DNA of 63,470 nt from an uncultured Eubacteriales bacterium (GCA_900542615.1 UQOG01000003.1:1-63470); one strand, 5' to 3'. Positions 1-12,011 are shown, counted from the first letter of the stretch. Made by a program: numbers and translations. The notes: generated from the letters alone by a model not told the origin.

Positions 1-66
1 CGCGCTGACAGTGACCAGAGACATGGTCATCACCAGAGCAAGCACCAGTGAAAGAAATTTCTTCAT
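1..66 (-). CDS. Partial CDS (5' end only) of a signal-peptide-bearing secreted or surface protein; continues beyond window start
   Basis: Minus-strand ATG at 66-64 is preceded by GGAGGAG (complement of 75-81). It encodes MKKFLSLVLALVMTMSLVTVSA, a typical signal peptide. It is absent from the ORF track because it is truncated by the window edge. Confidence 0.45.
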   Translation of the reverse strand, partial: MKKFLSLVLALVMTMSLVTVSA

Positions 67-442
67 TCGGATTTCTCCTCCTTTAAAAGATTTGCAGAGA
101 GCTTTTGAGGTCCAATCTCCGGACCGGCTTCATATGCGCAGGGGTGTCTCTTCCCGTTGCTCCGGCCCAGAGCGGACCACAGAAGTTCCTTTCTGCGCGT
201 TCACTTTACCCCAGGAGAATGCTGCTGTCTACGATTTGCCGGGTTTTGTTAAAAAAGTGAAATAATTACTGGATTTCTTGCGCTTGCCATGAAAAGCAAG
301 TGTAACCGATGAAAAAGTTCCCAAACAAAGTGGCGATTCCGGCAGGCCTCCGCATAGGGGCAAAAAGAAAGATGCCGTGAAAACAGATTCTCTGCTGCCA
401 CGGCATCTTTCTTCTGCTATGTGGGATGCATTGCCCAACAGG

Positions 443-1714
443 CTACGATTCTTTCAGATAGTATTTCTGGCCGACTTTAATCAGGTTTCCAGAATCTACT
501 TCATGCTTGAGCAGCGCGGAGCATTGCTCGGTTTCAATCTGCAGGGCGGTGGTGATGTCCTTCCGACAGGCAAAGCCCTCCTTCTTCAGATATTCGTAGA
601 GGGCTTCCTGCTGTCGTTCCGGCGGAACTACGGAATCCGGTAAGTAGTATTTATAGCCCACGCGGACCAGGAGACCCTTATCCAGCATGGCACGCAGCCG
701 CTGATACGCAGCGGATTTGGTCTGGCCATATAATTCCATGATCTGGCTGCGTGTGATAGGGCCACTGCGGCGAATCGCCTCTGTGATCTTTTGTTCCCAA
801 TTGCTCTTTTCGTATCTGGTCCAGAGATCTCGCAACGTCCAGTTCTCCATGCCGCCGCGGATCAGGGCGGTTCTTGTGATCCTAGACACCCGCGAAACGT
901 CCATGGGTTTTTTTGACTCGGCGGAGAGCAGGACATGGAGATCCTCCGTCCGCTTCTGGAGCCGCTTTGCCAATATTCTTTTGGCTGCCGCTGTCAGCGG
1001 TACCTCTCCTTCCGGCAGGTGAATCAGATTCTTCTCCAGATCCACCTGATCCCAAGTCAAGGACACAATGTTTTTAGCGGTCAGCCCCATGCTCCAAGTA
1101 AGCCAGAGTACCAAGCCGGCAGGAGTGTCTTTTTCCGCCTGCAAAATCTTCCACAGCTTGAACTCATCGATGTCCCCGGACTTCTCACTATGCTTGGGGC
1201 CAGCTCTTCCGTTCGGCAGATACTGGGCAAAATGCAATTGTAAAGACCGGATCTCCATACCGGTGATACGAGCCACATAGGACCAGTCGTGTTGTTCCAG
1301 TTGTCGAATTATATAGTCATGGCGCAGATCGACCAGACGCACGTTCGTTTGCCCTACCTCGTCAAGAACCCTGCGCGCTATCCGGGAGATTGCCTGGGGT
1401 TGCATTTGCTTATGGTAGCGATCAGAGCAGATCACGCAGTTATTTGTGGAATTCCCGGTGAGAAATGTCCATTTTCTGTACACGGAACGCAGGTAATCTG
1501 CCAGCATTTGAGTAATGGGAATCGTCCGAGCTGGCAACTGGAGTTGATTTCGTTCAAAATCCACCTGATCCCAAGTCAGGTTCGTGATCTCATCCCGTAG
1601 CAGTCCCGCCTGCCATGCAAGACGCACAGCCACACCGGCGGCATCGCTGGCGTGGCTTCCCAGAAGTCGTTCCATGGCCGCCGTATCCGGCCGATTCACA
1701 AAAAATTCTCGCAT
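443..1714 (-). CDS. Atypical tyrosine-recombinase-like protein: two tandem degenerate integrase catalytic-type domains plus two C-terminal winged-helix-like repeats
   Basis: 423-aa ORF with ATG at 1714 and a GGAGGGG SD. The first module has GLLRDEITNLTWDQVD ... DLRHDY ... AQYL. The second module, GLTAKNIVSLTWDQVD ... TLRDLW, has the Arg/His positions substituted. The C-terminus has two repeats ending G-x-KYYL that resemble wHTH domains. Confidence 0.7.
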   Translation of the reverse strand: MREFFVNRPDTAAMERLLGSHASDAAGVAVRLAWQAGLLRDEITNLTWDQVDFERNQLQLPARTIPITQMLADYLRSVYRKWTFLTGNSTNNCVICSDRYHKQMQPQAISRIARRVLDEVGQTNVRLVDLRHDYIIRQLEQHDWSYVARITGMEIRSLQLHFAQYLPNGRAGPKHSEKSGDIDEFKLWKILQAEKDTPAGLVLWLTWSMGLTAKNIVSLTWDQVDLEKNLIHLPEGEVPLTAAAKRILAKRLQKRTEDLHVLLSAESKKPMDVSRVSRITRTALIRGGMENWTLRDLWTRYEKSNWEQKITEAIRRSGPITRSQIMELYGQTKSAAYQRLRAMLDKGLLVRVGYKYYLPDSVVPPERQQEALYEYLKKEGFACRKDITTALQIETEQCSALLKHEVDSGNLIKVGQKYYLKES

Positions 1715-1845
1715 ACGGCCCCTCCGTGCCCCGAATTCCCTGCCTGATGCAAATCGAAACTTGCTTGGGCGATTATTCGTCGACGGACGGGCTTAGAGAA
1801 ACTTCACTGAACAGTTCCTGCCGCTTCCCTTTGCTCGCTGCCTCG

Positions 1846-2118
1846 TCACGGAATTATCATTCCGTCGCTGATTCATATGAAAGGGATTGGCGGGTCAAAG
1901 GGAAAAGACACAAAAAAAGCCCGTACTATCTGCACGGGCGAAAAAAACGATATTAGAACCAAGGCCGGACAGAATTTAACGTTTCCCCGGCTTTTTTCTG
2001 CTGCCCGGAGAGGCAAAACCCTCTTGTGGGCAGGCGCCCTATGTGATAAAATGTAATTGCAGATATGTAGGATAAATTGTTTTTTGCGATTATTTGTGTC
2101 GGAATGATAATTCCGTGA
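1846..2118. repeat. Perfect 19-bp inverted repeat pair bracketing a 235-bp segment between two recombinase genes
   Basis: TCACGGAATTATCATTCCG at 1846-1864 has its exact reverse complement (CGGAATGATAATTCCGTGA) at 2100-2118. Each copy is itself an imperfect palindrome (CGGAAT-4 nt-ATTCCG) whose asymmetric spacer (TATC vs GATA) gives it an orientation. Confidence 0.9.
1912..1947 (-). terminator. Rho-independent terminator downstream of the XerC-like gene (bidirectional architecture)
   Basis: Stem GCCCGT (1919-1924) / ACGGGC (1934-1939) with a 9-nt loop, flanked by A7 runs at 1912-1918 and 1941-1947. On the minus strand the stem is followed by T7. Confidence 0.6.
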
Positions 2119-2964
2119 TTACGATATCAGCCCCAGCCGGTCAAGCGTTCGCTGGTGCTCTGCGCCAGAAGTCAGCAGATAGATGCGCGTCGTTTCGATG
2201 CTGCTGTGGCCCAACAGGTCGGACAGTTTGACGATGTCCCGACAGGCCCGGTAAAACACGGTGGCAAACATGTGCCGCAGATTGTGGGGGAACACCTTGC
2301 CCGGCATCACGCCGGCGTATTTGCAAAGGCTCTTCATCTCCGCCCAGATCTGGCGGCGGCCCAGTTCTTTTCCGCTTTTGGTGCGAAAGATCGCACCAGA
2401 GGCGGTCTTTTGCTTTTGGGCATATTTGAGCAGCTTGCGGCAGAGTTTCCCCGGCAGCAGGATCACGCGGATTTTGCCTTTGAGGGAGACTTCGGCCTTG
2501 CCCTGCCGCACGGCTTCCACTGTGATATAGCGGACTTCGCTGACCCGGATGCCGGTGGCCCCGATGGTCTCCACCAGCAAGCCCAGCCGCTCCCGGCCCA
2601 GACGGCAAGCCGCGTCCAGCAGGCTCTGATAATCGGATTTTGTCAGCTCCCGGCCGGCATCCCGGAACAGCCGCCGCTGGATTTTCAGGAATTTCACCCG
2701 GCAGTCGTTTAGATCAAGGTACGCCAACAGGCTGTTTAAGGCAGAGAGCATGGCATTGATACTGGCGGGGGCGTAGCCCTGCTCCGCCAGATAGGCTTTC
2801 CACTCTGCGGTCAGCTCCTTGCAGATTTCGCGATCACCCAGCCAGCAGGCGAATGCCCGGATATCCCGAAGATACTTTTCCATGGTGGCTGCGCTCTTCT
2901 CCTCCAGCAGAAGGTGACGGGCAAACGCCTGTATTTGCAGGGGTGTCAGTTTGTGTTCGGACAT
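2119..2964 (-). CDS. Tyrosine site-specific recombinase, XerC/XerD-like (281 aa)
   Basis: Track ORF 2119..3030 was trimmed to ATG 2964, which has an AAGGAGG SD upstream and gives the same length as the paralog at 10305..11150. Motifs: ATGIRVSEV (Arg I), HNLRHMFAT (HxxR), LLGHSSIETTRIYL (His plus Tyr nucleophile). Confidence 0.9.
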   Translation of the reverse strand: MSEHKLTPLQIQAFARHLLLEEKSAATMEKYLRDIRAFACWLGDREICKELTAEWKAYLAEQGYAPASINAMLSALNSLLAYLDLNDCRVKFLKIQRRLFRDAGRELTKSDYQSLLDAACRLGRERLGLLVETIGATGIRVSEVRYITVEAVRQGKAEVSLKGKIRVILLPGKLCRKLLKYAQKQKTASGAIFRTKSGKELGRRQIWAEMKSLCKYAGVMPGKVFPHNLRHMFATVFYRACRDIVKLSDLLGHSSIETTRIYLLTSGAEHQRTLDRLGLIS

Positions 2965-3472
2965 AGGGGGGCCTCCTTGCATGATTTCATGCCAACATTG
3001 TACAGGAACGGCAGAGACAGCAAAGCCCACAGCGGTAACTGCCGCTGTGGGCTTGTGAATCCTGGTCCCGCAATGGTAGGATTGCCACCGGTTTCCAGAA
3101 AATATACGGGTTGCCCTATCTGCTTATCATGGGATTCTTCTCTTCACGAGTTATGGAAGCAAATATGATACCATACTGCTCCAGAGGCCGATGGGAATAT
3201 CCGAAACACAACGAGGCTGCGTGCAGAAAAATATGCGTAAGCTGTTGATTACGAGTAGATTTTGCCTTTGTTCACAGCATCGAAATGCCGATGGCCGGCA
3301 GAGCGGGTTTTCCTTACGCAATTCTTCTGCCCCTCCGGCCGCGCAAAGTGGGTCCGGGCTTCCGCATGGAACTGCCCCTGGCTATAGCCGGGGACGATGC
3401 TTTCCCTGCCGAAAGGTGGGGGGCTTTTGGGATCGTCCGCCCCAAATCCTGTAAAAATTCTTTTTATTCCCC

Positions 3473-3501
3473 TGAAACGATGGTACTCTGAAACACGAAT
3501 A
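3473..3501 (+). promoter_or_regulatory. Candidate ECF-type (autoregulated) promoter: TGAAAC-N17-CGAAT
   Basis: TGAAAC at 3473-3478 and CGAAT at 3496-3500 with a 17-nt spacer, about 25 nt upstream of the sigma-factor ATG. It resembles the Bacillus SigW-type TGAAAC-N16-CGTA consensus. Confidence 0.4.
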
Positions 3502-3524
3502 TACCTGTGAAAGGCGGTGAGGCG

Positions 3525-4061
3525 ATGGAGCGGGAACAGACATGGATCAGGGCTATCCAGCGGCGAAACTCCCGGGAGGCGGCGGAGCAGCTGATCCAGA
3601 CCTACTATGACGAAATCTACCGCTTCGTCTACCGTCAGACCGGCAGCAAGGAGGACGCCATGGACCTGACCCAGTCCGTCTTCATCGCAGTCCTGCGGGC
3701 ATTGCCCGGCTACCGGGCGGAGCGGGCGTCCTTCCGCACCTGGCTGTACCGCATCGCCGCCAACAAAGTCATCGACACCCGCCGGAAGGCCCGGCCGGTC
3801 TCTATTCCTATTCAGGAAATGGAGCTCCCTGCAGCAGAGGACTTTGTGGCCCGCGTCCATGACCGGGCCCTGCTGGAGACCATCGAAGGCTATGTCTCCG
3901 GCCTGGACCCCGGGGAGCAGGCGGTGTTCCGCCTGCGGATCTACGGGGAAAAGACCTTCCCGGAGATCGCTGCCGCCATGGGAGAGCCGGAGGCGGCAGT
4001 GAAATCCAGATACTACCGCCTGATCGGGCGGCTGCGAAAGGAGTTTGGAGCAGATGGATAA
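3525..4061 (+). CDS. ECF-family RNA polymerase sigma-70 factor
   Basis: Region 2 (DAMDLTQSVFIAVLRALPGYR ... FRTWLYRIAANKVID) and region 4 (FRLRIYGEKTFPEIAAAMGEPEAAVKSRYYR) motifs. The start was moved to ATG 3525 with a GGTGAGG SD; the track starts at GTG 3507. Confidence 0.9.
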   Translation: MEREQTWIRAIQRRNSREAAEQLIQTYYDEIYRFVYRQTGSKEDAMDLTQSVFIAVLRALPGYRAERASFRTWLYRIAANKVIDTRRKARPVSIPIQEMELPAAEDFVARVHDRALLETIEGYVSGLDPGEQAVFRLRIYGEKTFPEIAAAMGEPEAAVKSRYYRLIGRLRKEFGADG

Positions 4062-4803
4062 TCAAAAAATTTCCATGCCCACAGAGGCGGAAAAACAGCG
4101 GGCCATTGCCCGGATTCTGGATGCAGGCCTGCCCCGCCGGGTCGCCTTTGGCCGGGAGCTGCGGGAGGTTTTGCAGCGCATCGGCCCCCGCGCGCTGCTG
4201 TTTGGCGTGGGGGACTGTTTGGCCTTGTCCCTGCTGATCTGGGCCCTGTGCCTGCTGTCGGCGCTTTTTGTGGCCGGTTCCACCGGCTCTTTGGCACCGG
4301 CCCTGTTCCTGTTTTCTCCCCTGCTCTATGCCGCCCTCTCCCTGCTGACTGCCTGGAAGAACCTGCAGACCGGCATTTGGGAGTGGACCTGGACCTTCCA
4401 GGTCTCCGCCCGGATGGTGGCGGCCCTGCAGATGCTGTGCTTCGGCGGGGTGTCCGTACTGGTGTGTGTCCCGGCAAATATGCTGTTGTGGACCTTCACC
4501 GGGCAGGAGATGCCCCTGGGCTGGATGCTGGCACTGTCTCTGGCCAGCCTGTTTCTGTATGGCGCTCTCTCCCTGCTGTGCCAGCGGCTGCGGGGACCTG
4601 CCGGGTGGCTGGCGGCGCCGACCGGCTGGGTTCTGATGGGCCTGATTCCCCTGATCTGGCCCCGGACGGCGGAGTGGCTGACGGCCATCCCCACCGTAGT
4701 GTTCTGCCTGCTGGCCGCGGCCGGGATTACTCTGTACCTTTTGGAACTGCGCTGCTTCTGCCGGCGCCCGATGGAAGGAGGCGTCTCCTATGCTCTCCGT
4801 TGA
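4054..4803 (+). CDS. Multi-pass membrane protein, putative cognate anti-sigma factor
   Basis: ATG 4054 overlaps the sigma-factor stop (ATGGATAA) and follows an AAAGGAG SD. The protein has a short soluble N-terminus followed by about six hydrophobic segments. The function is inferred only from position after the ECF sigma. Confidence 0.5.
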   Translation: MDNQKISMPTEAEKQRAIARILDAGLPRRVAFGRELREVLQRIGPRALLFGVGDCLALSLLIWALCLLSALFVAGSTGSLAPALFLFSPLLYAALSLLTAWKNLQTGIWEWTWTFQVSARMVAALQMLCFGGVSVLVCVPANMLLWTFTGQEMPLGWMLALSLASLFLYGALSLLCQRLRGPAGWLAAPTGWVLMGLIPLIWPRTAEWLTAIPTVVFCLLAAAGITLYLLELRCFCRRPMEGGVSYALR

Positions 4804-5641
4804 GCACGTCACGAAAACCTATGGGAAGTTCACCGCTTTGGAGGACATTTCCCTGACCTTCACTCCCGGCGTCTACGGTCTGCTGGCACCCAATGGGGCG
4901 GGCAAGACCACCCTCATCAAGATGCTCACCACCCTGCTGTTCCCCACCAAGGGACAGATCCTGTGGGAGGGAGAAGACATCCGGGCCTTGGGGGCGGAAT
5001 ACCGGGGCCTGCTGGGGTATCTCCCCCAGCAGTTCGGGTACTATCCCAGCTACACGCCCCGGCAATTCCTCCGGTATGCCGCCGCCCTCCAGTGCATCCC
5101 GAAGCGGGAGGCGGACGGCCGCATTGACCACCTGCTGGAGACAGTGGGACTTGGGGATGCTGCGGACAAAAAAATGAAGAAGTTCTCCGGCGGGATGCTC
5201 CAGCGGGTGGGCATCGCCGTAGCCATGCTGAACGACCCGAAGCTGCTGATCCTGGACGAGCCCACCGCTGGGCTGGACCCCCGGGAGCGGGTGCGGTTCC
5301 GCAATTTGATCCACACGCTGGCTGAGGATCGGATCGTGATTCTCTCCACCCACATCGTCTCAGACATTGAGACCATCGCCGGGCAAATCGTCATGTTCAA
5401 GGATCACCGCCTCTACTGCTGCGACAGCCCTGCCCGCATCTGCGCCCGGTTCCAGGGCAGGGTATTCCAGCTTCCTGCCGGGATGCCCCTGGCCCCGGGA
5501 CAGTTCCTGCTCAGCGAAGGACAGGGGGCGGATGGCCCGGTGCTCCGGGTGCTCTGCGAGACGCCCCCTGTCAATGGAACGCCGGTAACGCCGGGGTTGG
5601 AGGATGCGTTTCTCGCCATCTACCGGGAGGAACAGACATGA
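4790..5641 (+). CDS. ABC transporter ATP-binding protein
   Basis: Walker A GLLAPNGAGKTT, signature FSGGMLQRVG, Walker B LLILDEPTAGLD. GGAAGGAGG SD present; the start overlaps the upstream gene. Confidence 0.92.
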   Translation: MLSVEHVTKTYGKFTALEDISLTFTPGVYGLLAPNGAGKTTLIKMLTTLLFPTKGQILWEGEDIRALGAEYRGLLGYLPQQFGYYPSYTPRQFLRYAAALQCIPKREADGRIDHLLETVGLGDAADKKMKKFSGGMLQRVGIAVAMLNDPKLLILDEPTAGLDPRERVRFRNLIHTLAEDRIVILSTHIVSDIETIAGQIVMFKDHRLYCCDSPARICARFQGRVFQLPAGMPLAPGQFLLSEGQGADGPVLRVLCETPPVNGTPVTPGLEDAFLAIYREEQT

Positions 5642-6783
5642 ATCTGGCGGTCTATGAGTGGCGGAAGCTCTTCCGCCTGCCCGCCCTGTGGGCCTTCCTG
5701 GCCCTGTGTCTGGCCTTTAACGGGCTGCTGATCGCCACGCTCTCCCCCTATGACCGGGCGTTCTTCAACGAGACTTCCCAAACGGCAAAGGCCTTGGGCC
5801 AGCGGGTTGATGAAGACTTTCTTGCCGGGCTGGACGCTATACCCGCCACAGAGAACCGGGATTTGCTGCGTCAATCTGTCACCGGGATGGAGGACATTTT
5901 CGAGACGTATGACACCGGGGAACTCTCGGATTTCTATGCCGGTGTGGTGGAGAAATCCCCTCTGGCAGTTACCTGGATGACCTGGAAATATGATCTGCTG
6001 GCGAGCCGGGTGGAGCACCTGGCCCAGACTGACGCGGCGCTGGATTTGTACGCCGGCCCGGCCACCTACGGCAGCCACCAGTTCCTCTTCGGCGCGCTGT
6101 TCCGGGCCATTCTCTGTGAGAGCGCCATTCTGGCCATGCTGGGGACGCTGTATCTGCTGGGCTACGAGGGGATGCACCGCGCAGAGGGCCTGGCCTGCGC
6201 CTCCCGAACGGGACGGAAACTACGGCGGGTGAAGGTCCTGGCGGCTCTCCAGGCGTCGGCGGCGCTGTACGGCCTGCTGGCGTTCTGCACCCTGGTGCCC
6301 TACTTCCTGCTGTACGACTACAGCGGAATCTGGAATGCCAGCGTGTCCAGCCAGTTCAACTATTTCTCGGACATGCTGGTGGTCCGGCCCTTCCTCACCT
6401 GGGGGGACTTCACGGTGGGTCAGTACCTGGCCGCTGCCCTAGCCCTGGGCGCGGTGCTGACGGCGGTATTCTCCCTGCTGGCGTCGGTGTGCGGCACGCT
6501 GGTGCGAAGCCCCTATCTGGCGGCCCTGGCGCTGTGCCTGGTGTGCTTCGGCGGACTGGGACTGGTCTCCGTTCTGGGGGAGCTGGGCTGGTGGGCGGCC
6601 TATTTGATTGCCTGTTTCCAGCCGGTAACGGTCTGGCTCTCCTGCAGCGCCTGGTTCACGGAGCTGGGACTGAACGCCGTCCTCCCCTGGCAGGAGACCA
6701 TCGCAAGCGGGCTGAACCTGCTGCTTTTGGGCGGCGGAGTCCTGTTGGCTCTCGGTTGGTTTGACAGAAAGGACGTGTCCTGA
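5638..6783 (+). CDS. ABC-2-type transporter permease-like membrane protein
   Basis: ATGA overlap with the ATPase stop. One N-terminal TM, an extracytoplasmic loop of about 130 aa, then multiple C-terminal TMs, as is typical for ABC-2 permeases. Confidence 0.7.
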   Translation: MNLAVYEWRKLFRLPALWAFLALCLAFNGLLIATLSPYDRAFFNETSQTAKALGQRVDEDFLAGLDAIPATENRDLLRQSVTGMEDIFETYDTGELSDFYAGVVEKSPLAVTWMTWKYDLLASRVEHLAQTDAALDLYAGPATYGSHQFLFGALFRAILCESAILAMLGTLYLLGYEGMHRAEGLACASRTGRKLRRVKVLAALQASAALYGLLAFCTLVPYFLLYDYSGIWNASVSSQFNYFSDMLVVRPFLTWGDFTVGQYLAAALALGAVLTAVFSLLASVCGTLVRSPYLAALALCLVCFGGLGLVSVLGELGWWAAYLIACFQPVTVWLSCSAWFTELGLNAVLPWQETIASGLNLLLLGGGVLLALGWFDRKDVS

Positions 6784-7991
6784 TGGAACTTTTGAAATGG
6801 GAGCTGCGGAAGATCTGGCGGCCCGGCATCCTGGCGGCCATCCTGCTGCTGGGGGCGGTATACTACTGGATGTTCCCACAGTTCTATATCGAGCACTTTT
6901 GCAACGGTCCCCAGTCGGAGGCCCAGTTCGATCTGGCCTCCGACTGGGTGGAGCGGTATGGCCCCACCCTGGAACCGGAAGAACGGGCAGAACTGGACGA
7001 GCAGATGGTAGAGGAGATCACGGCCTTTGACACACAGATCACCGCCATCCCGGAAGCTGCGGCAGCGGGGCTGACGGACTATAAATCTTTTCTCTCCTTT
7101 CGGGGGGACTACCTGAACGGCATACGCAACACTGATGGACAGGCAGATATGGATGTGGAGGCCCTGCTCTACCGGGTGTACGGCGGCACCAACTGGTACC
7201 GGATCGAGGCGCTGGCGGATACTCTGGAGACCTATGATACCCAGGAGGATCACCGCGCTCTGATTGTCTCCAACCGGCAGCAATTGGCCCAGCCGGAGGC
7301 CATGGTCCGGCGGGAGGCGGAGCTGGCAAGCTCGGATATGACCCATTCCCTGCTGCCGTCCTCTGTGAAATACTCCACTCAGGAGTACGGCAAGGATCTG
7401 GCGGTATGGTGCGTACTCAGCATCGTGCTCCTGCTCTCCCCCACCCTGGTGCGGGACCGGCTGCGGAACACCCGGCCTATGCAGTGGGCCTCCCGGCGGG
7501 GGCGGTCCGTTTTGAACGTTCAGATGGGAGCTGCCCTGCTCTCTGCGCTGGTGCTGGCGGTGGTGAATATAACAGTCTATGTCATTCCGTTCCTGGCCCA
7601 GGGGCCCCTGCAATTTGCCGCCTGCGGCCTGGACGGCATCTGGGAGTGGGGCACTCCCTGGTTCGACTGGACCTACGGCACCTATCTGCTGGTGCTGGCG
7701 GGGCTGATTTTGGCCCTGTCCCTGGGGGCCGCCGGGCTGACGGCTTTTCTCTCCCAGTACAGCGGCAACTACATCGCCATGCTGCTGAAGGCCGTTCCCC
7801 TGTTCGTGGCGGTGGGGGTCGTGCTGGGCTCCTGGCTTCTGGATCGGCCCTTCACGTTCCGCCCCCTCTGGGACGGCTACGGCCCCTGGGTGCCCAAGGG
7901 TGCGGAGGCGGTGGCCGCTGCAGTCCTGCTGGCTTTGGGACTTGGCCTGTGTGCCCTGGCCTGCCGGCGGCAGCGAAAGAGGGAACTATGA
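6783..7991 (+). CDS. Second ABC-2-type permease-like membrane protein
   Basis: ATGA overlap with the upstream permease gene. Same topology: MELLKWELRKIWRPGILAAILLLG, a large loop, and a C-terminal TM bundle. Confidence 0.7.
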   Translation: MELLKWELRKIWRPGILAAILLLGAVYYWMFPQFYIEHFCNGPQSEAQFDLASDWVERYGPTLEPEERAELDEQMVEEITAFDTQITAIPEAAAAGLTDYKSFLSFRGDYLNGIRNTDGQADMDVEALLYRVYGGTNWYRIEALADTLETYDTQEDHRALIVSNRQQLAQPEAMVRREAELASSDMTHSLLPSSVKYSTQEYGKDLAVWCVLSIVLLLSPTLVRDRLRNTRPMQWASRRGRSVLNVQMGAALLSALVLAVVNITVYVIPFLAQGPLQFAACGLDGIWEWGTPWFDWTYGTYLLVLAGLILALSLGAAGLTAFLSQYSGNYIAMLLKAVPLFVAVGVVLGSWLLDRPFTFRPLWDGYGPWVPKGAEAVAAAVLLALGLGLCALACRRQRKREL

Positions 7992-8267
7992 TAAAGGAAA
8001 TTTTATTTTCTCTTAAATTTTATCTCTACAAGTATGATCCGGATTGTGACCCGGAACGATGAAATAGCGCGGAGTGGAGCGCAGCAGCCTTCGAGTCTTG
8101 GCCCGTTTGGGGTCTAAAAACACTTCGGCGCCGGCCGTCCAAAGTAGGCGTGGGCCTCTCAGCGCTTGGCTGCTGCCGGCAAGCCAAATGCTCCGCGCGT
8201 CCTGCAGGGAGCGGAATTTAATGACATTGGGCCAAAGCCCCCTCCCGCCTCATTGGCTTACAGGAGG

Positions 8268-9150
8268 CCAGTCCATTCCTCTGTGCCGTTGTCCATATCA
8301 TAACTGTGAGCGTTGGTGGCCTCTATAAGTAGGCCCAATGGGTCCCTTCCACATCGGAGAACCGCCGCAGTTCATCAGTATGGCGGTCCATATACGCTGT
8401 GTCGGCGCTGCGGCCCAACATTCGGTTAACGATGGCAGTTACCTGTGCCCGGGTGATAGAATATATGGCCGGAACGTACCATCGAAAAATCCGCCGATCC
8501 AGCCGTACTGGGCGGCGCTGGTCACTTGGGTACAAAACCAGTCATCCTCGTTCGCGTCGGAGAAGAGGCTGGTTCCACCGGGCGTCTCGTTGGCAAACCG
8601 TATGGCGATCACTGCGAATTGGGCCTGGGTGATATCCCGATTGGGCTGAAATGCGCCGTCGGAGTAGCCCTGTATGATGCCCAGGGATAACAGCAGAGGC
8701 GCGCCACATATCATCTGGAACATCTGTGCAACGTATCGGTGACAGACACGTTCTTTTCCAATAGTAGGTTGTAGAACATCTGCGCCGCCTGGCCCCGGGT
8801 CATCTGCCGGCCGGGGGCGAAAGAGCCGCCTGTGAATCCGTCGAGATAAACCGTATGGTCTCTGGTATTCAACCAGCTGGACACGTCGGTGTTATCAGGA
8901 TCGGCGATCGGCTGAGTGGCCTTAAATACCACCTTGATGGTGTGGTTGGCCCGCACGTTCTCAAAGGTATAGTGACTGATAGCGCCTACGCTCTCGCCAT
9001 CTACCAGCACATTAAAAATCCGGTAACCGTCGCCGGCCATAATGTGGAAGGCCCGGTCGCCGCCCCGGCTGACGTTGGCGCGCCCGGAGGGGGTGATGGA
9101 GCCGACTTGGCCTGTCTCGGCGGTGATGGCGCAGGATCCGCTGGTCCTAT
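8268..9150 (-). pseudogene. Decayed 3' portion of an SLH-domain cell-surface protein gene (at least 3 frameshifts, 5' end missing)
   Basis: The reading frame hops across track ORFs 8711..9181, 8439..8723 and 8323..8535, plus an unlisted tail to TAA at 8268-8270. SLH-like motifs are present: FSDVEGTHWAY, GYSDGAFQPNRDITQAQFAVI, GGSFAPGRQMTRGQAAQMFYNLL. An Ig-like stretch (GYRIFNVLVDGESVGAISHYTFENVRANHTIKVVF) starts abruptly next to the recombinase stop at 9147. Confidence 0.7.
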
Positions 9151-10019
9151 TGGGCCGCTTTTTTCTGTTCTGGCAGCTCATCCCAACCGACGGCCAGCTG
9201 CTCCGTGTCCAGCAGACGGTCGTAAGCCTGTTCCGCCAGCAGCCGCACGCCGCGGTCGATCTCTGCCTGGGTGACCAGATACAGCTTTCGCAAGCACCGG
9301 GGATTGCACTTCTCCGGCGCTACACGGGCCGCACCAGACAGACTCTGGATGTCCCCCGTCACCTGTGTCCGCCGCAGGGGCCGCCTGCTTCTGGTGACGA
9401 ACACCGGCCCTGCCGTCAGCCCCTGCCGGCGGCAATAGGATAGCAGCTCTGCCTGCAGACACCTTGGCAACTGGACACGCCGCTGCTCACCGCCGGAGAC
9501 AGCCGGTGTGCGTCCACTCTGCACGGCCTCCACAGTGATCTGAGGCAGTTCTCCGACGTGGGCTCCTGTCAGGGCAATTGCTTTCACCAAAAGATACGTT
9601 CTCTCCTTTTCCAGCGCCCGAGCAGCAGACAGCAGCCGCAGATATTCCGTTCGGGTCAGTTCCGACTGGGGTGCCGTTTCCGTCTCCAGCTGTCCGGTCA
9701 GCTGCAGATCCCGGCGGCCCAAGTAGTCCAGCAGGCCGTTAGCGGCGGAGATGTTTGTGTTCACTGTGGCCGGGGCATATCCCTCTGCCAGCAGAGCCTG
9801 CCGCCATGTCTCCAGAGTATTCAGGACGATTTGCTTGTCAGGCGGCAGATAGTCGTAGAATGTCTTCAGTTTTGCGGCGTAAAACCGCACGGTCTCTTCC
9901 CGGCGCCCTCGGTGATTCAGATCCTCCAAATAGGCCCGGATGCTCTCTTCACTTACCGTTACACCGATTGCTTTCAGCGGTGCTGCCGCCTTTTGACACA
10001 CCGCGCCTGTTCTCTGCAT
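9147..10019 (-). CDS. Degenerate tyrosine-recombinase-like protein (partner of XerC-like 10305..11150)
   Basis: Trimmed to ATG 10019 with a GGGGGAGGAG SD. It has an integrase N-terminal SAM-like domain (ETVRFYAAKLKTFYDYL ... GYAPATVNTNISAANGLLDYL). In the catalytic domain Arg I appears replaced (LTGAHVGEL) and the HxxR box reads NPRCLRKLY. Confidence 0.7.
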   Translation of the reverse strand: MQRTGAVCQKAAAPLKAIGVTVSEESIRAYLEDLNHRGRREETVRFYAAKLKTFYDYLPPDKQIVLNTLETWRQALLAEGYAPATVNTNISAANGLLDYLGRRDLQLTGQLETETAPQSELTRTEYLRLLSAARALEKERTYLLVKAIALTGAHVGELPQITVEAVQSGRTPAVSGGEQRRVQLPRCLQAELLSYCRRQGLTAGPVFVTRSRRPLRRTQVTGDIQSLSGAARVAPEKCNPRCLRKLYLVTQAEIDRGVRLLAEQAYDRLLDTEQLAVGWDELPEQKKAAQ

Positions 10020-10304
10020 TGCTCCTCCCCCTATCAACGAAATCAACATTTTGAATACGTCCGCGGGCAAAGTAAGACCTGGAGCGCATGATTTCAGGAG
10101 AGAATCCGCTTCTAAAACACGCTCCAGACCTCGTTGGGGCAGAGAAAAGAGGGCCGAGAAAAATCCTTTTTCCCGGCCTGATTTTGTGCGTCCCAATTGG
10201 GGGGAGTCCCTTGCGGTTCCTTTCAAACCGTGCTATAATAAAAGCAATTTATGTAAGAAAAAAGGGGCCGTTGAAATTTTTTGTGACAAAATGTTGATTT
10301 TGAC

Positions 10305-11150
10305 CTACGAAACCAGCCCCAGACGTTCCAGTTGCCGGGCGTGCTCCGCTCCGGAGGTCACAAGGTAGATACGAGTGGTTTCAATGGAACTGTGGCCCAG
10401 CACATCGGCCAGCCGCACGATGTCCTTGCAGGCCCGGTAGAAAATGGTGGCGAACAAGTGCCGCAGATTGTGAGGAAACACCTTGGCAGATTCCACTCCG
10501 GCGGACTTGCACAGCCGTTTCAGCTCTGTCCAAATCTGGCGGCGGCTCAGAGAGGTTCCGTTTCTGGTGAGAAAAATCTCGCCTGAAACGGTTTTGTGTT
10601 TTCTGGCGTATTTCAGCAGTTTGCGGCAAAGCTTGCCCGGCAGCAGAATGGTGCGAATTTTTCCCTTGAGGGAGATCTCGGTCCGACCCCGCTGGGCGGC
10701 CTCCACGGTGATATACCGCACCTCGGACACCCGGATACCGGTAGCGCAGATGGCCTCCATCAACAGGGCCAGCCGCTCCTGCCCACGCGCTCTTGCCGCG
10801 GCCAGCAACCGCTCGTACTCCTGGCGGGTCAGTTCACGGCCTGCGTCGCGGAACAGGCGGCGCTGGACTTTCAAAAATTTTGCCCGGCACTCGTCCCAGC
10901 CCAGAAAATGAAACAGTCCGTTAAGTGCAGCCAGCATAGAATTAATGGTCACCGGGGCGTAGTCTTTAGAGAGCAGGTGATCCCTCCATTCGGCAGCCAG
11001 TTCCCTGGAAACTGGTCTGCCGTCCAGCCAGCCGGCAAAGGCCCTGATATCCCGGAGATACTTTTCAATGGTGCCGGGGCTCCGCTCCTCCCTCCGCAGA
11101 TGTGCCGTATATGATGCGAGTTGTGCCGGGTCGATTGTCCGCTCAGGCAT
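10305..11150 (-). CDS. Tyrosine site-specific recombinase, XerC/XerD-like (281 aa), paralog of 2119..2964
   Basis: ATGIRVSEV, HNLRHLFAT and LGHSSIETTRIYL motifs. It is colinear with, and roughly two-thirds identical by eye to, the 2119..2964 product. Confidence 0.9.
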   Translation of the reverse strand: MPERTIDPAQLASYTAHLRREERSPGTIEKYLRDIRAFAGWLDGRPVSRELAAEWRDHLLSKDYAPVTINSMLAALNGLFHFLGWDECRAKFLKVQRRLFRDAGRELTRQEYERLLAAARARGQERLALLMEAICATGIRVSEVRYITVEAAQRGRTEISLKGKIRTILLPGKLCRKLLKYARKHKTVSGEIFLTRNGTSLSRRQIWTELKRLCKSAGVESAKVFPHNLRHLFATIFYRACKDIVRLADVLGHSSIETTRIYLVTSGAEHARQLERLGLVS

Positions 11151-12011
11151 TTCTATAACCTCCTACAAATATTTTTCTTTATTTTATCTTGCAGGAGGCA
11201 GCTTATGCAGTACTAAGAGCCCTCCAAAGTCCGTTCAAAGTCTGGTTTCATTTTTTGTTTTCTGTAGTATACGTGAACTTGTAACGGGCGGTCCGTTATG
11301 CGTTTTTTGCTGTGTGTTTTTTGAAGCAGATGGCCGGCCGATGAACGTAAAGATTTCAGATATTGCCGCTCCCCATAAAAGGCCCGGCTGATAGAGCAAT
11401 TGGGATTCTGGTTGCCTCTCTGATCCGGCAGCCAATCAACTTGTAAGGGGTTTGGATGGGACGGATTGCCCTGTGTGCCTGCCGCATTTCTGGTCAGAGT
11501 GTCAGTGCGACCGGAGGCTGCTTTGCTCTGCCCGTATAGGAAAATATGGCCTATACAGACTGCGGTTTGCTGTTTGAAGCCAGTATGGCATCCGCTATGA
11601 TGTCCGCCATAGTTTTAAGAATAGAAATTTTGTGGAGGAAGTGATCTGCGTCACCTGGGCAGAGCGGCAAGACGCCAAAACCGGTATTTAGCAGGATGTT
11701 CGCCCCTCCTTTCGTTGTGATCTTGTGCTTCCCATAGCCTGCCCCGGAATGATAAAAGCCGCCGTAGAGTGGACACGACCTCCGGGGGTGGGCGATTTCG
11801 GGGCTAAACACACTTGGAAAGCACGGTGTATCGGATGGAGAATCCTGCCTCAGCTTATCACCTGAAAGGCGTTGTACAGGTCCGCCTCCGCAACCGCAAA
11901 ACTGTCTGATTTGCGATCAATCAAGCTGGTTTTCCCGGCTTTTGGCATCAAAAAGCTCGGACCAGATCGGGAGGCACTTCCGCCTGTCCCGAACCCCAAA
12001 CTATACAGGAC

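Follow-up and report, generated by a model that had tools for sequence, protein, structure and literature searches.

We analyzed a 63,470-nucleotide stretch of DNA from an uncultured Eubacteriales bacterium (GCA_900542615.1, UQOG01000003.1:1-63470), here called the window, in which positions 1,846 to 2,118 had been proposed, on reading the sequence alone, to be a candidate invertible DNA switch lying between two recombinase genes. The locus consists of a short segment enclosed by inverted repeats (the arms), a recombinase gene that reads toward it from one side and, on the other side, a gene for a protein of 423 amino acids (aa) that would be under the control of the switch. Its features, in window coordinates, are as follows:

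443–1714, minus strand: gene under the switch, 423 aa, with two degenerate tyrosine-recombinase catalytic-fold domains and two winged-helix domains
1846–1864, no strand assigned: distal arm, TCA plus CGGAAT-TATC-ATTCCG, 131 nt upstream of the start codon at 1714
1865–2099, no strand assigned: candidate invertible segment, 235 bp, 75% identical to the segment of the related locus L008 over 185 nt
1912–1939, minus strand: intrinsic terminator, a hairpin at 1919–1939 and then U7 (1912–1918), on the strand of the recombinase and downstream genes
2024–2052, plus strand: predicted sigma-70-type promoter, TTGTGG at 2024–2029, a 17-nt spacer and TAAAAT at 2047–2052, with TG at 2044–2045
2100–2118, no strand assigned: recombinase-proximal arm, CGGAAT-GATA-ATTCCG plus TGA, the arm ending at 2118 and the recombinase stop codon occupying 2119–2121
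2119–2964, minus strand: Xer-like tyrosine recombinase, 281 aa, presumed invertase (Pfam Phage_integrase 4.3e-23, SAM_1 6e-11)

The two arms (TCACGGAATTATCATTCCG at 1846–1864 and its exact reverse complement at 2100–2118) are 19 nt long and 100% complementary, with 235 nt between them, and the original prediction was therefore right in their coordinates, length and complementarity. When up to 3 mismatches were allowed, the 19-mer occurred at 2 places only in the 63,470-base window, these being the arms themselves, and none of 100 dinucleotide-preserving shuffles of the window contained any 19-mer match. A search of the genome (2.14 Mb in 182 contigs, 96.7% complete) with the 16-nt core and up to 2 mismatches found no further site. 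The pair is thus unique in its genome and, as had been claimed, far beyond chance. Within each arm, palindromic half-sites flank an asymmetric 4-nt centre (CGGAAT-TATC-ATTCCG), and the centres are oppositely directed in the two arms; the core-site-like structure that the prediction had described, with 6-bp halves around opposed 4-bp spacers, is legible directly in the sequence. In a relative that is 80% identical (L112), the arms retain 37 of 38 positions and the enclosed segment is 75% identical. Judging from this comparison, both arms are under constraint, having been kept while the segment between them diverged.

The recombinase gene has an intact reading frame, and its stop codon abuts the right arm. 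The catalytic residues that make up the motifs of tyrosine recombinases are well established, and alignment of the 281-aa protein to the XerA structure 4a8e showed that the R, K, HxxRH and GH...Y motifs are all kept. Its best matches were to XerA, XerD and XerC, each below the equivalog cut-off (139.2 versus 220, 114.9 versus 329.6 and 110.4 versus 335.2, respectively), while the NCBIfam models of tyrosine-type DNA invertases gave 22–23 bits versus cut-offs of 221–222. Since the equivalog cut-offs were missed, we rejected identity with the XerC/XerD chromosome dimer resolvase. Between a promoter-like site (3130–3101, minus strand) and the start codon of the recombinase gene we also observed a perfect 13-nt hairpin with a 6-nt loop at 3023–3054; it has no T-run and possibly takes part in regulating the recombinase gene.

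The gene on the other side of the segment had likewise been called a recombinase gene, and here the claim of two flanking recombinases holds for 2119–2964 and fails for 443–1714, whose product has no conserved catalytic tyrosine. Pfam recognized two partial Phage_integrase stretches and weak helix-turn-helix matches in the 423-aa protein. At least 835 relatives of about 420 aa were found in the protein database, from sources that include Oscillibacter, Dysosmobacter and Oscillospiraceae. In an alignment of 36 of these relatives, the first arginine (R40) and a DLRH box show little or no variation, and no tyrosine is conserved at the nucleophile position, where the tyrosine of an 'AQY' motif varies. 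An AlphaFold2 model of the protein (predicted local distance difference test score, pLDDT, of 88) was matched by Foldseek to the XerA catalytic domain (∼165 columns, root-mean-square deviation of 2.6–2.9) and to the tandem winged helices of SelB; BLASTP detected no similarity between the protein and the neighboring recombinase. On the alignment and the structural model, the 423-aa protein is best described as a catalytically dead, recombinase-derived protein with predicted DNA binding. The gene also contains a 46-nt direct repeat (1014–1059 and 1533–1578, 74% identity), which reflects an internal duplication of the recombinase-fold domain containing LTWDQVD.

The enclosed segment had been described as containing a bidirectional terminator at 1912–1947. 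A fold calculation gave the minus-strand hairpin at 1919–1939 an energy of −15.3 kcal/mol (z = −4.2), and seven U follow it. On the plus strand, the same hairpin is trailed by an A-run and has no U-tract. Because the U-tract exists on the minus strand only, the terminator is one-way, and that part of the description has to be given up. The promoter at 2024–2052 had gone unnoticed. It points away from the 423-aa gene and into the 3′ part of the recombinase coding sequence, and it starts at offset 159 of the segment, where related loci carry a TTGnnn-17-TATAAT element at about 143–216, mostly at 150–165. The repeat centre itself, GATAAT, combines with TTCATA or TTGCGA into weak promoter-like sites (9 of 12 positions) at 1853–1881 on the minus strand and 2084–2111 on the plus strand. 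No known RNA family was found by Rfam in positions 1–12000 of the window.

Taken together, these features most probably describe a promoter inverton of the fimS type that is served by its own recombinase, a reading in which we have considerable confidence. The recombinase encoded at 2119–2964 would bind both 19-bp sites, and strand exchange between them would flip the 235-bp segment. In the orientation found in the window, the promoter at 2024–2052 would fire antisense into the 3′ end of the recombinase gene, and the minus-strand terminator at 1912–1939 would halt read-through from that gene. Because the promoter faces the recombinase gene and the terminator blocks read-through, the downstream operon would be OFF; this operon, consisting of the gene for the 423-aa recombinase-derived winged-helix protein and then a gene for a secreted protein, would depend on the promoter of the segment for its expression. 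After inversion, the promoter would lie at ∼1940–1912 on the minus strand and read via the distal repeat into the gene starting at 1714, and with the terminator reversed read-through would no longer be blocked, turning the operon ON. The idea of an invertible switch therefore survives in amended form: the architecture is present and conserved in a family of loci, while the promoter had been missed, the terminator works in one direction and only one of the two flanking genes encodes a working recombinase.

To place the locus in its family, we scanned one genome per species for relatives of the recombinase. From 250 relatives the best 80 loci were kept, 61–85% identical and titled, for example, Oscillibacter, Lawsonibacter, Pseudoflavonifractor, Dysosmobacter, Agathobaculum and Neglectibacter; by title, the related loci belong to Oscillospiraceae, Lachnospiraceae and other Clostridia. 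The order of elements is conserved, with a recombinase gene followed by a repeat, ∼230 bp holding a terminator and a promoter, a second repeat and a variable gene. A perfect repeat of at least 10 nt starts −5 to +45 nt from the last codon of the recombinase in 61 of the 80 loci, as it does in both copies present in the window, and the family arms are mostly 224–256 nt apart. Such a repeat is missing from the other 19 loci, 9 of which span less than 300 nt past the stop codon. Counts of perfect repeats (12 nt or longer) at different places relative to the gene served as a control: 54 of 68 intervals just past the stop codon contained one, compared with 1 of 73 upstream of the recombinase gene and 2 of 64 placed 1.4–2.1 kb downstream. 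The ends of contigs are also unevenly distributed, since 11 of the 80 loci stop within 400 nt past the stop codon, compared with 4 that start in the 400 nt ahead of the start codon, which is the asymmetry expected if assemblies break at a bubble of mixed orientations.

The arms of the family share the consensus CARAAT-N4-ATTYYG, in which the four variable bases are most often CAAC, and at least 5 of 7 palindromic pairs are formed in 52 of 63 loci. The half-sites covary across loci (AAAAT with ATTTT, AGAAT with ATTCT, GGAAT with ATTCC), and sites become more similar as their recombinases do (Spearman 0.33 over 1,326 non-independent pairs). Elsewhere in the genome of the window, the consensus occurs at four lone places (C8, C52, C57 and C95), none with a partner repeat, and these are therefore probably chance matches. 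We also ran the scan in reverse, searching by the pattern of the repeat pair alone, which returned at least 119 stretches, and we examined the DNA of 80 of them. Among the matches listed, a recombinase adjoins one arm in 32 of the 80; of the 48 without one, 43 have arms of only 10–13 nt and come mostly from unrelated AT-rich genomes, and three of the five with longer arms end at a contig edge beside an arm. The cassette is patchily distributed, given that only 5 of 300 sampled genomes of the same order hold a close homologue (E 1e-90 or better).

The regularity of the family bears on the idea that a small non-autonomous mobile element, similar to a miniature inverted-repeat transposable element (MITE), happened to land between two genes and that the arms are its terminal inverted repeats. 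Outwardly, a short, AT-richer segment within perfect inverted repeats does look like a MITE. The 2.14-Mb genome contains the segment once, no target-site duplication is visible in the flanks (...GCCTCG and TTACGA...), and dozens of species, despite their differing repeat sequences, have the repeats at the same place relative to the recombinase stop codon. We give this explanation next to no weight.

If the segments invert, homologous loci should be found in both orientations, and they are. In a set of 63 loci, the promoter points toward the recombinase in 50, toward the downstream gene in 9 and is unclear in 4; in 24 further loci (after 7 duplicates were dropped), the corresponding numbers are 22, 1 and 1, which gives a total of 72 of 87 facing the recombinase and 10 of 87 facing the downstream gene. 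The promoters that face downstream sit at the mirrored position of the segment, as inversion predicts. Direct comparisons agree with this. In the paralogous loci L018 and L027, which come from one metagenome-assembled genome (MAG), the flanks are colinear (82% and 80%), and the segments match at 73% on opposite strands. L011 and L013 have colinear upstream and downstream flanks (90% and 72%) and a segment 77% identical on the opposite strand; L011 and L017 have an upstream flank that is 93% colinear and a segment 76% identical on the opposite strand; and L011 and L009 likewise hold their segments in opposite orientations between colinear flanks. Over all segment pairs with alignments of at least 80 nt, 9 are opposite-strand and 45 same-strand. 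Because the family shows both orientations, we infer that the copy in the window can flip as well.

Two further pairs were set aside. L136 and L161 belong to two genomes that carry the same species name, and they have opposite promoter directions; their 74% identity is confined to the recombinase gene, and we rejected them as a flip of one locus because they are paralogous loci. L035 and L038 were not counted as a flip, a 99% inverted and a 91% colinear match being present together and L038 having arms of 67 nt (at 3845–4112). Over-long repeats of this kind were also observed in L039 (55 nt, extending into the 3′ end of the recombinase gene) and L142 (112 nt), and all three look like assemblies made through mixed orientations.

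The same comparisons speak to a role for the repeats that does not involve inversion, either as operators for repression of transcription by the recombinase or by the downstream DNA-binding protein, or as the two ends of a long-range stem in a read-through RNA. Such a role would fit with a first gene behind the switch that encodes a recombinase-derived DNA-binding protein, and the repeat is probably transcribed, since it comes directly after the recombinase stop codon. Yet reverse-complemented segments between colinear flanks are left unexplained by it, as are the mirrored promoter positions, and the transcribed strand has a terminator between the arms, so that a single RNA spanning both arms is unlikely in this orientation. 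We therefore regard a non-inversion role as very improbable.

Several points count against the inverton interpretation, the first of which concern this copy itself. The 19-mer is present in 27 metagenome stretches, eight of which are unrelated single matches. Among 17 metagenome contigs that span the locus at 80–100% identity, none carries a flipped copy, although the 17 are not independent, several being nearly identical to each other. The assembly to which the window belongs holds no alternative-orientation contig either; its smallest contig is ∼2.2 kb, and bubble contigs would be filtered out. Since assemblies show only the majority state, a single orientation in contigs is a weak negative. 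Of the remaining metagenome contigs, L097 terminates inside the segment. L099 (positions 1–720) shares with the window the recombinase (98% identity), the right repeat and that half of the segment in which the promoter lies, but where the window has the terminator half, the left repeat and the 423-aa gene it carries unrelated DNA with a helicase C-terminus and a ComF-like gene. L099 is presumably a one-armed, locked variant, as far as its sequence can tell.

These observations raise the question of whether the locus is a locked or decaying switch, formerly an invertible promoter and now fixed facing the recombinase, with no or very rare flipping. The uniform orientation of the 17 spanning contigs, the natural existence of a one-armed variant and the bias of the family toward the recombinase-facing orientation (72 of 87) would all be compatible with this. 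Against it stand arms that are perfect over 19 nt and conserved where the segment diverged, as well as a recombinase whose reading frame and catalytic motifs are intact; moreover, 17 of 17 is also expected of a phase-variable locus that is mostly OFF, assemblies giving the majority orientation. We consider a locked switch unlikely and conclude that the locus is conserved, under constraint and predominantly OFF.

The other points against the inverton concern its parts. Both the promoter and the terminator are consensus predictions, the promoter at 2024–2052 being a match to consensus only. The two weak promoter-like sites straddle the repeat boundaries, which means that the OFF state may be leaky. 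The crossover regions of tyrosine recombinases are 6–8 bp, longer than the 4-nt centre of the arms, and for that reason the boundaries between half-sites and spacer are uncertain; the positions of cleavage are likewise predictions. Perfect repeats of at least 10 nt are absent in 10 of the 68 loci with at least 700 nt past the stop codon. Lastly, it is probable and not certain that the cassette family is the inverton group 139 of a read-mapping study discussed below.

To ask what such switches control, we scanned the first open reading frame (ORF) past the distal arm with Pfam in 53 loci. The most frequent class, at 16 loci (L009, L010, L013, L018–L021, L027, L029, L031, L042, L045, L055, L063, L068 and L072), is a DUF4379 treble-clef zinc-finger protein with 3–5 repeats. 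A second class, at ∼12 loci and also behind a second switch in the window, is a recombinase paralogue of ∼285 aa. Alignment of a set of these paralogues (window 9147–10019 with L012, L015, L035, L041, L047, L056, L064, L070, L074 and L077) showed that they lack the first arginine, the lysine, both histidines and the tyrosine, and that they are well conserved among themselves, with a C-terminus ending in ...VGW; the genes 3′ of them encode signal-peptide proteins, GT2 glycosyltransferases and an ABC-2 permease. Large secreted proteins with VWA/Cna_B, pilin, GLUG/Flg_new or beta-helix domains make up a third class at ∼9 loci, and the remaining first ORFs encode small membrane proteins or other proteins. 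The common theme of the switches is cell-surface phase variation, with a first product that is often a recombinase-derived DNA-binding protein.

At the locus in the window, the 423-aa gene is followed by two features:

365–413, minus strand: possible terminator hairpin after the 423-aa gene, with 23-nt arms 87% complementary, a 3-nt loop and a short T-run after it
1–66, minus strand: next gene, running off the contig start, whose product has a signal-peptide-like N-terminus (MKKFLSLVLALVMTMSLVTVSA)

From this N-terminus, the protein starting at 1–66 is probably secreted and located at the cell surface; no contig of the genome overlaps the start of the window, where its gene runs off. SLH-domain surface proteins are direct neighbors of relatives of the 423-aa gene. 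A pattern scan in Oscillibacter-type genomes found a recombinase and repeats upstream of 1 of 8 such relatives (L121), and with only this one having a switch upstream the 423-aa gene is not a fixed partner of the switch. In 150 sampled genomes of the same taxonomic family there were 0 matches to the 423-aa protein, a result that reflects the sample or the first-look filter and not absence.

The dead recombinases often encoded first behind the switches, in the 423-aa and the ∼285-aa form, could conceivably be regulators of switching: made in the ON state only, they would bind the core sites of their own or other switches and thereby lock or bias the orientation, or silence rival loci for surface proteins, as a recombinase-derived counterpart of UpxZ-type cross-control or FimE-type directional bias. 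In that case, one feedback circuit would also include the strong preference of the family for the recombinase-facing orientation and, in that state, the promoter that fires antisense into the recombinase gene. We offer this as a tentative proposal that is rather doubtful at present. If it is true that dead recombinase paralogues regulate switching, they would form a previously undescribed layer of control.

The window contains a second cassette of the same family, with the following features:

8439–9181, minus strand: SLH-domain ORF fragments behind the 290-aa gene, two short ORFs of 156 aa and 94 aa
9147–10019, minus strand: gene under the second switch, a 290-aa recombinase paralogue without catalytic residues, beginning twenty bases past the distal arm
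10040–10300, no strand assigned: second switch, with perfect 14-nt arms at 10040–10053 and 10287–10300 and 233 nt between them
10211–10239, plus strand: second-switch promoter, TTGCGG-17-TATAAT, facing its own recombinase
10305–11150, minus strand: recombinase of the second switch, a paralogue sharing 66% identity with the recombinase at 2119–2964

The proximal repeat of this switch starts four bases after the stop codon of its recombinase, and its segment also holds a hairpin, here with T-runs on both sides. The two ORFs at 8439–9181 look like parts of one surface-protein gene, possibly frameshifted or truncated. Between the two cassettes (3507–7991, plus strand) lie genes for an extracytoplasmic function (ECF) sigma factor, an overlapping membrane protein, an ATP-binding cassette (ABC) ATPase-like protein and two permease-like proteins; the membrane protein whose gene overlaps that of the sigma factor has no Pfam match and is a possible anti-sigma factor.

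The locus is most probably an ordinary kind of bacterial on/off switch, and its wider interest lies in the breadth and regularity of the large, little-described family of gut Clostridia cassettes from which it comes and in the recombinase-derived proteins under switch control. Phase-variable promoters are well studied in Bacteroides, Escherichia coli and Clostridioides difficile; to our knowledge, they have hardly been studied in the abundant, poorly cultured Oscillospiraceae and related gut Clostridia. The family is a self-contained cassette (recombinase gene, two sites, terminator and promoter) that has been copied before many different genes. Its fixed geometry and the consensus CARAAT-N4-ATTYYG would allow phase-variable surface genes to be predicted in MAGs without reads, and, since each switch comes with a recombinase of its own, the family is an attractive source of orthogonal genetic switches.

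Among published surveys, the closest counterpart comes from a PhaseFinderDC read-mapping study of the defined gut community hCom2 (2025; PMC11892184), part of which was available to us. In that part, inverton group 139 has 33 members, of which 32 come from Clostridia; it is intergenic, nearly every copy has a tyrosine-type recombinase/integrase beside it, and no other group is linked as strongly to an adjacent group of such recombinases (invertase group 35), and the examples given have 13-nt repeats 228 nt apart (Intestinimonas) and 25-nt repeats 206 nt apart (Clostridium sp. D5) (PMC11892184). Flipping of this group was seen in reads, with ratios that shifted over passages and between mucin-attached and supernatant cultures (PMC11892184). 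The group and our family have in common the class Clostridia, a tyrosine-type recombinase within 5 kb (adjacent here) and a similar geometry. Neither of the example genomes printed there is among the loci analyzed here, and the promoter and terminator, the position just past the stop codon and the nature of the downstream genes are seen in our loci and not in the available part of that account. Our literature search found no paper on the internal anatomy of the cassette, its site consensus or the dead recombinase paralogues.

With XerC/XerD and dif, the recombinase shares the two-domain fold and the catalytic motifs. It differs in scoring far below the respective cut-offs, and in that the genome has two paralogues, each with two inverted sites next to its gene, instead of one dif.

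In C. difficile, RecV acts in trans on several unlinked switches (flagellar, cwpV and pdcB), and the cwpV and flagellar switches act after transcription initiation. These switches resemble the present family as cases of Clostridia phase variation in which a tyrosine recombinase inverts short segments upstream of surface or signaling genes. In contrast to the RecV-dependent switches, every switch here is accompanied by a recombinase gene next to it, searches of the genome turned up no orphan sites and the segment carries a predicted promoter.

Bacteroides has invertible promoters at capsular polysaccharide and surface-protein loci, served by the recombinases Mpi and Tsr, with UpxY and UpxZ as first genes. 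Both there and here, promoter invertons precede loci for surface structures and the first genes are regulators, not structural genes, such a role being hypothetical for the dead paralogues and DUF4379 proteins of our family. The context is also Bacteroides-like, the family being followed by secreted proteins, glycosyltransferases and ABC-2 exporters. The two differ in phylum, repeat motifs and promoter type, and in the identity of the first genes, which here encode dead recombinase paralogues or DUF4379 proteins.

The E. coli fimS element, the switch of type 1 fimbriae, is 314 bp long with 9-bp repeats and is inverted by the recombinases FimB and FimE, which have different directional biases. 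Here the segment measures 235 bp, its repeats 19 bp, and there is a single active recombinase; only a distant relationship links the proteins of the two systems, and the first gene encodes a dead recombinase-like DNA-binding protein and not a fimbrial subunit. In both systems, a short invertible segment bearing a promoter lies before an operon for surface structures, and one or more tyrosine recombinase genes lie upstream and read toward the switch, so that the recombinase transcript enters the switch and its fate would be set by the orientation. Of the systems compared, fimS comes nearest in arrangement, given that there, too, transcription of the recombinase gene runs into the switch.

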